Source: a virus (taxonomy: Duplodnaviria > Heunggongvirae > Uroviricota > Caudoviricetes). From it: 39,156 nt of DNA. Shown one piece after another: positions 34,325 to 35,698 of the stretch (its first letter is position 1; each line of letters starts with the position of its first letter). The stretch lies in IMG/VR virus record IMGVR_UViG_2695420487_000015. One strand, 5' to 3'. The translations under genes and the position numbers were made by a program. A model generated the notes under the pieces. The model made no database searches, had not been told where the DNA came from, and saw only the letters and a list, made by a program, of their open reading frames with translations.

Positions 34325-35698
34325 ATGTTAGTTAGTAAAAGCAACGGATTTAACGCTAGCGCAGTTTTGGGTAGTGGAAGTTATAATGAAAATAAATCTT
34401 CTAAACACATGGAGCTACTAGCTCATAGTATTTTAAAATTAATTTGTAAGGAAGCTGCATCAGAGACGTATCGCGGTGCTCTTGAAACTTTACAAAAAAT
34501 GATGTCTGAATGTATATATCAAGAAGGCAACGCCTTTGTCATTATGGGAGCTGGAGAACAATTAAAACGTATTAAATATGAAGTTGGTGAAAATAACTTA
34601 AAGGTATTCAACGTACACTTTAATAATAATCACGAGTTAGTTAGTTCTGGTGAGCCTGACGTAATATGTTTAAGCAAGCAGGTCTGGGAAAATCTTCTCA
34701 TTAAACTAAAGCTGGAAAACAATGAAAATGTGTTTTCTGAAACTAAAAAATTATCGAATAAAAATAATGCCGATCAGTTTTTTGAATGCGCTAAAAGAAA
34801 TGAATAGAACCTTTTCGATAATATAAGAAAAAGTGATTTTCATGTTGGTTTACTTAAGCCAAGTAGTACGCGTAGTGTTATTTTAGAAACGCCGCCAAAT
34901 GTCTGTATGGAATCACGTAATTCATATGAAAACAAAATAGATGAGATTTCATCTTTGTCAGAGTCAAAGGAACACCCCATAGATATTCAAGAAAAAAAAG
35001 ATGCGTTTGTGAATGAGTTCAAGGGGGTATTATTTGATAAAAATACAAGGTCTTCAGAGCTTCTGTTTAATTTTTATGAGTGTTGCTATAAGTTTTTACC
35101 AAGAGCTCAGCCTCAAGATAAAATCGATAGCTATAATTCAGCACTGCAAGCTTTTTCCATTTTTTGTTCATCTACGTTGACACATAATAATATAGGCTTT
35201 GATTTCAAATTATTTCCTGAAGTCAAGCTGTCTGGAGAACATCTTGAAACGGTATTCAAATACAAAAATGGCGATGATGTCCGGGAGATAGCCAAAATTA
35301 ACATTACTCTCCAAAAAGAAGAGGGTGGTTTATATAATTTACGTGGATTGGATTTTAAGGGGTGCTTCTTTTCTGGACAGAACTTCAGTAACTATGATAT
35401 TCAATATGTGAACTGGGGAACGTCATTGTTTGATGTTGATACTCCGTGTATTTTTAATGCGCCTGCTTACAACAAGAGTAATGAAAAATCATTAAAACCT
35501 GTGAGCGAAAACGGTTTAAGTGGAGTATTGACTGATCGTAATAATAAAATAAAACTCATCACGGGCGTGGCACCATTCGATGATATTTTATTTATGGATG
35601 ATGACTTTGATGATAGTTCCTCTGAGGATGATCCCGTTGAGAATAGTCCTGTTGTGACTAGTCCCGTTGTATCAAGTTCTAAAAGCAGTTTTCAATGA
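34325..35698 (+). pseudogene. Hypothetical gene interrupted by a single in-frame TAG (34805-34807), with a pentapeptide-repeat-like segment; ypjC-like position
   Basis: Track ORFs 34325..34807 and 34907..35698 share one frame; the 33 codons between them contain no further stop. AT-rich. GAGGAA RBS before the first ATG. Confidence 0.45.

Follow-up and report, generated by a model that had tools for sequence, protein, structure and literature searches.

The interrupted gene analysed here is, with high confidence, ypjCB in its K-12-type allele. This accessory gene of E. coli, AT-rich and present in single copy, has become a pseudogene through one C>T transition; it is already annotated, and its decay is of an ordinary kind. 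It was found in a 39,156-nt DNA (IMG/VR virus record IMGVR_UViG_2695420487_000015), which we refer to as a whole as the window. Over 1601 nt around the feature, the sequence agrees at 100% with E. coli K-12 MG1655 and with many other strains, and identity to E. coli strain 10 is 100% over the whole window. In MG1655, RefSeq describes the same interval as "ypjCB, YpjCB family protein", a pseudogene with an internal stop, and strain 10 carries the same PGAP annotation. Older annotation divides the locus into ypjC (160 aa, b2650) and ypjB (263 aa, b2649), and ypjC is a pseudogene in the K-12 annotation used by PMC6928379. Compared with ypjC/ypjB of K-12, the gene in the window has an identical sequence, TAG included, and it is flanked alike, by ileY upstream and by the pinH remnant and ypjA/ehaD downstream. 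The window differs in having a P2-like prophage of ~32 kb inserted in ileY, while the gene itself is the same.

Because the amber-interrupted ypjC/ypjB pair already stands in RefSeq as the single pseudogene ypjCB, the discovery value of the case is small. It nevertheless shows cleanly, in nature, how a gene becomes a pseudogene in a single step while the exact ancestral allele is still in circulation, and it is of use for annotation hygiene, given that Pfam splits the protein into DUF5507 and DUF5508. As a species-restricted and repeatedly lost orphan gene, ypjCB could also serve the study of how acquired genes decay.

Reading frame and family membership

On the plus strand, a single frame of 457 codons runs from the ATG at 34325 to the TGA at 35696–35698, with one internal TAG at codon 161 (Table 1). 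The remaining five frames of this interval contain 16–81 stops each, and 2000 shuffles of the interval gave a mean of 36.8 ± 5.9 in-frame stops with a minimum of 18. With one internal stop against that shuffle minimum, the ypjCB frame is a real coding frame, far beyond chance. The frame reading confirms what the earlier note had described, namely two ORFs that share one frame and are split only by this TAG.

The read-through protein matches the NCBIfam model NF050179 (Ecoli_YpjCB) with 947.5 bits (cutoff 650), residues 1–449 aligning on model positions 1–465. In Pfam, DUF5507 covers residues 1–160 (364 bits, E 7.8e-110) and DUF5508 residues 195–457 (619 bits, E 8.4e-187); these are two halves of one protein, and the two families were defined from the broken K-12 allele. 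The feature thus scores above the family cutoff and sits at the family's chromosomal position, and because its frame is broken at codon 161 it is a pseudogene member of the YpjCB family. The exact 160-aa product (YPJC_ECOLI) and the exact 263-aa product (YPJB_ECOLI) are each encoded on at least 1000 contigs.

Table 1. Features of the ypjCB locus and of the prophage upstream of it, in window coordinates
Feature	Position	Strand	Basis or remark
tRNA-ileY	1598–1673		CAT anticodon, read by ARAGORN as Met
P2-like prophage, ~32 kb, complete	1674–33574		inserted in the 3' half of ileY
Sigma-70 promoter motif TTATCA-17-TTTAAT in the ileY-ypjC spacer	33835–33863	+	sole match in the window
Shine-Dalgarno-like GAGGA, 7 nt upstream of the ypjCB ATG	34313–34317	+	read from sequence
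N-terminal part of ypjCB including the amber codon; K-12 "ypjC" ORF, 160 aa, DUF5507	34325–34807	+	ORF list, Pfam
Amber TAG in place of Gln161 (CAG), C>T transition at 34805	34805–34807	+	allele alignment
Rest of ypjCB, codons 162–457 and TGA, probably untranslated	34808–35698	+	ORF list, Pfam
Annotated "ypjB" ORF, 263 aa, DUF5508; ATG without Shine-Dalgarno	34907–35698	+	ORF list, Pfam
About seven degenerate five-residue repeats (aa 339–371), invariant across the family	35339–35437	+	invariant alignment columns
Acidic Asp/Ser/Pro-rich C-terminal tail (aa 416–457), predicted disordered	35570–35695	+	pLDDT ~30; length differs among alleles
GC-rich hairpin 120 nt past the stop codon, possible terminator	35819–35846		terminator scan, scored on the minus strand

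Intact alleles and the origin of the amber codon

Intact alleles of ypjCB are single ORFs of 449–484 aa and occur in EC974, O157:H7, strain 550, 10035210-2, and other strains. When the window allele was aligned with seven other alleles, codon 161 was CAG or CAA in all except that of E. coli O103 ML775, and glutamine was encoded in every intact allele; further alleles, in which the codon was read by position, agree with CAG/CAA in the intact ones. The exact Gln161 version of the allele in the window is present on 176 public contigs, and since it differs by no other amino acid, the lesion is a single C>T transition. The intact proteins of O157:H7 (WP_000906744.1, 449 aa) and of other lineages (457–484 aa) share the locus, the domain order and a strongly conserved C-terminal core with the window allele. 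They differ in being uninterrupted, with Gln at codon 161, in their divergent N-terminal and linker parts (down to 72% nucleotide identity in one 60-column alignment block), in a 35-aa linker insertion that some alleles carry, and in their C-terminal tails. These comparisons bear out the earlier proposal of one gene of about 457 codons inactivated by a single nonsense codon: the orthologues that are intact are single ORFs with CAG/CAA at codon 161, PGAP itself records an internal stop, and every non-disrupted allele examined is one continuous ORF, so that the two separate conserved genes that the proposal had set against itself were not seen.

The stop codon is also real. The 61-mer with the TAG at its centre has exact matches in at least 1236 of the 5426 complete E. 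coli genomes, a collection that over-represents K-12 derivatives, so that this proportion is not a population frequency. In O103 ML775 (L007, positions 2106–2108), TAG161 stands in a clearly different flanking haplotype and codon 235 is a stop as well; among the 5426 genomes, it is the one genome with TAG161 on this haplotype. We had considered recurrent TAG161 as a pattern and dropped it, O103 ML775 being a singleton; its TAG161 is a coincidence or a micro-conversion and not a conserved feature.

Erosion and loss across E. coli

The state of the gene in the species was sampled with 29 full-length BLAST matches, taken at even steps down the ranking. The copy was disrupted in 19 of these genomes and intact in 10. 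The K-12-type TAG161 accounts for 15 of the disrupted copies, and two of its carriers have gained a second lesion: an IS1 insertion in H1, and the loss of 1 nt from an A8 run at codon 223 in L016. Other lineages have broken the gene elsewhere, with a deleted C at codon 203 in two genomes, an additional A in an A7 run at codon 406 in an O157:H7 strain (Z1833), and a stop at codon 119 in one genome. The O103 strain, with its TAG161 and second stop, is likewise listed among the disrupted copies. Beyond such lesions, 2344 of the 5426 complete genomes (~43%) gave no megablast match to ypjCB at all. In E. coli W and B, the ileY region is reported to have been lost through IS-mediated deletions (PMC3032704).

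Pairwise dN/dS was 0.47–0.86 over the whole gene, 0.11–0.68 in the C-terminal core (aa 251–420), and ~0.5–1.8 in the N-terminal part; the linker gave higher values, which come from small counts. The constraint on YpjCB is weak and is concentrated in the C-terminal module. In most TAG carriers the frame downstream of the stop is otherwise open, which could reflect selection or a recent origin of the stop.

One could also imagine that loss of ypjCB has been favoured and not neutral, the protein being an E. coli-specific factor that interacts with a host or phage partner, possibly secreted, the absence of which would be of advantage in some niches, as with an antivirulence gene. The pattern of damage would fit, since the gene was knocked out independently many times, with at least six lesion types in 29 genomes, codon 161 hit on two haplotypes, and deletion in many lineages. 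The intact alleles would fit as well, in that a conserved C-terminal module is joined to a fast-evolving N-terminus and linker, with dN/dS above 1 in some pairs. We nonetheless think this reading rather unlikely, and favour ordinary decay.

Expression, and alternatives to simple decay

Judging from the sequence, translation would start at the ATG at 34325, served by the GAGGA motif, and would terminate after 160 residues to give an 18-kDa YpjC fragment. The remaining 296 codons would be essentially untranslated, and the "ypjB" ORF would be a C-terminal remnant without a ribosome-binding site of its own. The ypjC part is therefore expected to be the sole portion of ypjCB that is translated efficiently. 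Full-length protein would be made in traces at most, through misreading of UAG by near-cognate Gln-tRNA or in laboratory strains carrying supE (glnV44). A constitutive RpoD promoter with an H-NS mark has been described upstream of ypjC, in the ileY-ypjC spacer (PMC3946193). Its hexamers, TTATCA and TTTAAT, are listed with an 18-nt spacer and stand 17 nt apart in the window, where a search for TTATCA-18-TTTAAT gave no match; we infer that the motif in Table 1 is this promoter. In addition, Hha binds the ypjC region (PMC2408971). The H-NS-marked promoter and the Hha binding fit a silenced acquired gene, and ypjCB would on this account be a dispensable, H-NS/Hha-bound acquisition under ordinary mutational erosion, and not a regulated gene.

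Pfam and UniProt treat ypjC and ypjB as two families or proteins, and the locus could then have undergone gene fission into two genes that are both functional now, one giving the 18-kDa YpjC and the other giving YpjB by re-initiation at the ATG at 34907. In its favour, deletion of ypjC in MG1655 had a mild phenotype, in which pathogen colonisation of the biofilm was raised, and transcription of ypjC went up ~2-fold in mixed biofilm (PMC3646849). The frame left open in most TAG carriers would also suit such a fission. Against it, constitutive expression of ypjC gave no phenotype (PMC3646849), and all non-disrupted alleles examined are one continuous ORF. The ATG at 34907 lies 100 nt past the stop, with no Shine-Dalgarno-like motif in the upstream context as read from the sequence, so that "ypjB" is probably not expressed, and TAG carriers exist whose downstream part is frameshifted or carries IS1. 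Fission is in our judgement improbable. From the biofilm phenotype, the one hint in this direction, the N-terminal fragment or its transcript may keep some activity, and the 160-aa YpjC might have an activity of its own in resistance to biofilm colonisation.

A second alternative retains a function for the stop itself, as a programmed site of read-through or suppression that tunes the amount of full-length YpjCB; the earlier note had allowed for such a regulated gene. An A follows the UAG, which makes for a comparatively leaky stop in E. coli. With a suppressor that inserts Gln (supE), the residue at this codon would be exactly the ancestral one, and TAG161 is shared by O103 ML775 on its different haplotype. 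Yet the stop is derived and limited to one allele lineage and that one singleton, the intact alleles having CAG or CAA, and it is thus not conserved among orthologues. Other lineages inactivate the gene at unrelated positions, and secondary lesions build up downstream of the TAG in some of its carriers. Moreover, the tRNA genes of the window are ileY and its 3' fragment only, with no suppressor tRNA among them. Regulation through the amber codon is hence very improbable, and that part of the note found no support. There is next to no chance that the stop is a sequencing or assembly artefact: no support for this was found, and the identical TAG 61-mer recurs in 1236 independently assembled complete genomes, which include many K-12 resequencing projects. 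Simple pseudogenisation of ypjCB remains by far the best account of the locus.

The C-terminal module and its repeat segment

Intact YpjCB has an N-terminus rich in Ser and Asn, followed by a linker that varies, a C-terminal module of helical and beta character that is conserved, and a disordered acidic tail; neither a signal peptide nor a membrane segment was seen in the protein. The tail, which had been noticed as acidic and Ser/Pro-rich, is present as described, with 9 Asp, 10 Ser, and 4 Pro. The C-terminal half of the gene product had also been likened to pentapeptide-repeat, effector-like proteins on account of the segment LRGLDFKGCFFSGQNFSNYDIQYVNWGTSLFDV, which we found at residues 339–371. 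The likeness to pentapeptide-repeat proteins (PF00805), such as the PipB2/EspX-type T3SS effectors, lies in about seven units of five residues, centred on a hydrophobic one (YNLRG, LDFKG, CFFSG, QNFSN, YDIQY, VNWGT, SLFDV). The difference is that those effectors have long arrays of clear repeats, whereas the segment in YpjCB is short and scores below the cutoff. On the isolated 70-aa segment, PF00805 reached 14.7 bits (E 0.023; cutoff 20.2), with 19 residues aligned, or about four repeats. On YpjB it gave 12.2 bits (E 0.14), and PF13576 gave 13.6 bits against the 27 required. The pentapeptide Pfam models had no match to the full YpjCB protein at E ≤ 1. Membership in PF00805 or PF13576 was rejected, the scores being below the Pfam gathering thresholds. 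The N-terminus of YpjCB has no acidic residue in its first 20 aa, and low GC together with a Ser/Asn-rich N-terminus devoid of early acidic residues are features that we take to be effector-like. No T3SS genes are present in the window. The segment and its resemblance are thus real, while the link to effectors is not supported in the form proposed, given that the PF00805 score is under its cutoff and that a resemblance to PA14 is about equally weak.

This second resemblance concerns residues 297–374 (35213–35446), which align with the junction of two tandem PA14 domains (PF07691), covering the closing strands of one and the opening strand of the other. The match is to a protein with four PA14 domains (phmmer E 5.9e-4; BLASTP 3e-6 in a pairwise comparison), with 37% identity over 60 aa (297–356). 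Conversely, a four-PA14 protein (P0164) reaches 36 bits with the Pfam DUF5508 model. However, YpjCB has no counterpart to the body of a PA14 domain, which is made up of ~100 residues. The Pfam PA14 model had no match to YpjCB at E ≤ 10, and hhalign against the tandem PA14 repeats gave a probability of 17.9% over 71 columns spanning the domain junction. PA14 membership was rejected on these two results. The resemblance to the junction, which is a rival to the pentapeptide reading, may have arisen by chance or may be a relic.

Structure prediction gave models of low confidence. AF2 on the intact protein, with a family alignment of 30 sequences, reached a mean pLDDT of 40.8; in this full-length model, poor overall, pLDDT was 53–78 over residues 300–370, and beta bridges recurred about every five residues over 337–369. 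When residues 215–402 were modelled alone, pLDDT was 44, and the repeat region had different strands at pLDDT below 60. Neither model confirmed a right-handed quadrilateral beta-helix, the fold of pentapeptide-repeat proteins. The family is too shallow for co-evolution (hhalign Neff 1.25). Foldseek against the PDB returned only noise (TM ~0.1), and a sequence search of the PDB with YpjCB gave no match at E ≤ 10.

Distribution and genomic context

Matches to the YpjCB family were confined essentially to E. coli and Shigella. The 185,579 species-representative genomes yielded four ypjCB loci, of which two are from E. coli, one is from Shigella flexneri, and one is on a contig of a "Planococcaceae" MAG. 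An exhaustive phmmer search of 1.84 billion representatives returned a single cluster of full-length sequences together with fragments of that family; the one match outside it was the PA14 protein. No ypjCB was found in the phage records searched, and PADLOC gave no match with YpjCB; in PHROGs the family stands as a phrog of its own, the unannotated phrog_30093. Carriage on plasmids was considered and rejected, the "plasmid" matches being three mislabelled chromosomes and one partial match. The MAG contig (L011; DEQI01000374.1, "Planococcaceae bacterium UBA3370") is 2.8 kb long and matches the 457-residue query protein at 100% over its full length; that it is contamination from E. coli is almost certain.

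The locus also has the marks of acquired DNA. GC content is 34.2% in the ypjCB interval and 48.9% in the whole window, the gene adjoins tRNA-ileY and a recombinase remnant, many genomes are without a match to it, and its range is confined as above. The description of the region as an AT-rich remnant of an acquired island is upheld by these findings. The order ileY, ypjCB, pinH remnant, ypjA/ehaD is common to K-12, strain 10, EC974, O157:H7, and strains 20 and 550, and for K-12 the gene order ypjA-pinH-ypjB-ypjC-ileY has been given in print (PMC10652928). Neighbours of ypjCB are decaying as well. The ygaQ-like alpha-amylase pseudogene (1–1038, minus strand) has an internal stop here and is intact in some strains; pinH (36035–36202, plus strand) is a recombinase remnant of 168 nt; and the autotransporter gene ypjA/ehaD (36610–39156, plus strand) is intact in the matching genome and frameshifted or truncated in several other genomes examined. 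For the downstream autotransporter gene, the annotation of O103 ML775 gives no more than a frameshifted "AIDA repeat-containing protein".

In K-12, ypjCB begins 750 nt past ileY without an intervening prophage. In the window the complete ileY is 32.6 kb upstream of ypjCB, and it is a 3' tRNA fragment (attR) that lies 750 nt before the gene. The att core of ~49 bp, with one mismatch, is present at ~1630–1678 and at ~33527–33577, and PGAP names the right copy "tRNA-OTHER".

The prophage carries several low-GC stretches of its own. Between its baseplate and virion-morphogenesis genes is a cargo island of ~38% GC (12699–13412 on the plus strand and 13681–14757 on the minus strand), which encodes a RipA/8xMP octameric membrane protein (PF24838, E 3.6e-36) and a protein whose match to DUF4238 only just passes the cutoff. 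PADLOC had no match to either protein, and our guess is that the island is an accessory or defence hotspot of the P2 type. An unannotated cargo ORF of 487 aa (31821–33284, minus strand), in a stretch of 38% GC between the integrase and attR, had no match in Pfam or PADLOC. Finally, in a prophage stretch of 36% GC, an Acyl_transf_3 acyltransferase (23953–25170, minus strand; PF01757, E 3.9e-25) adjoins a truncated dinI and may be a moron that modifies surface polysaccharide.
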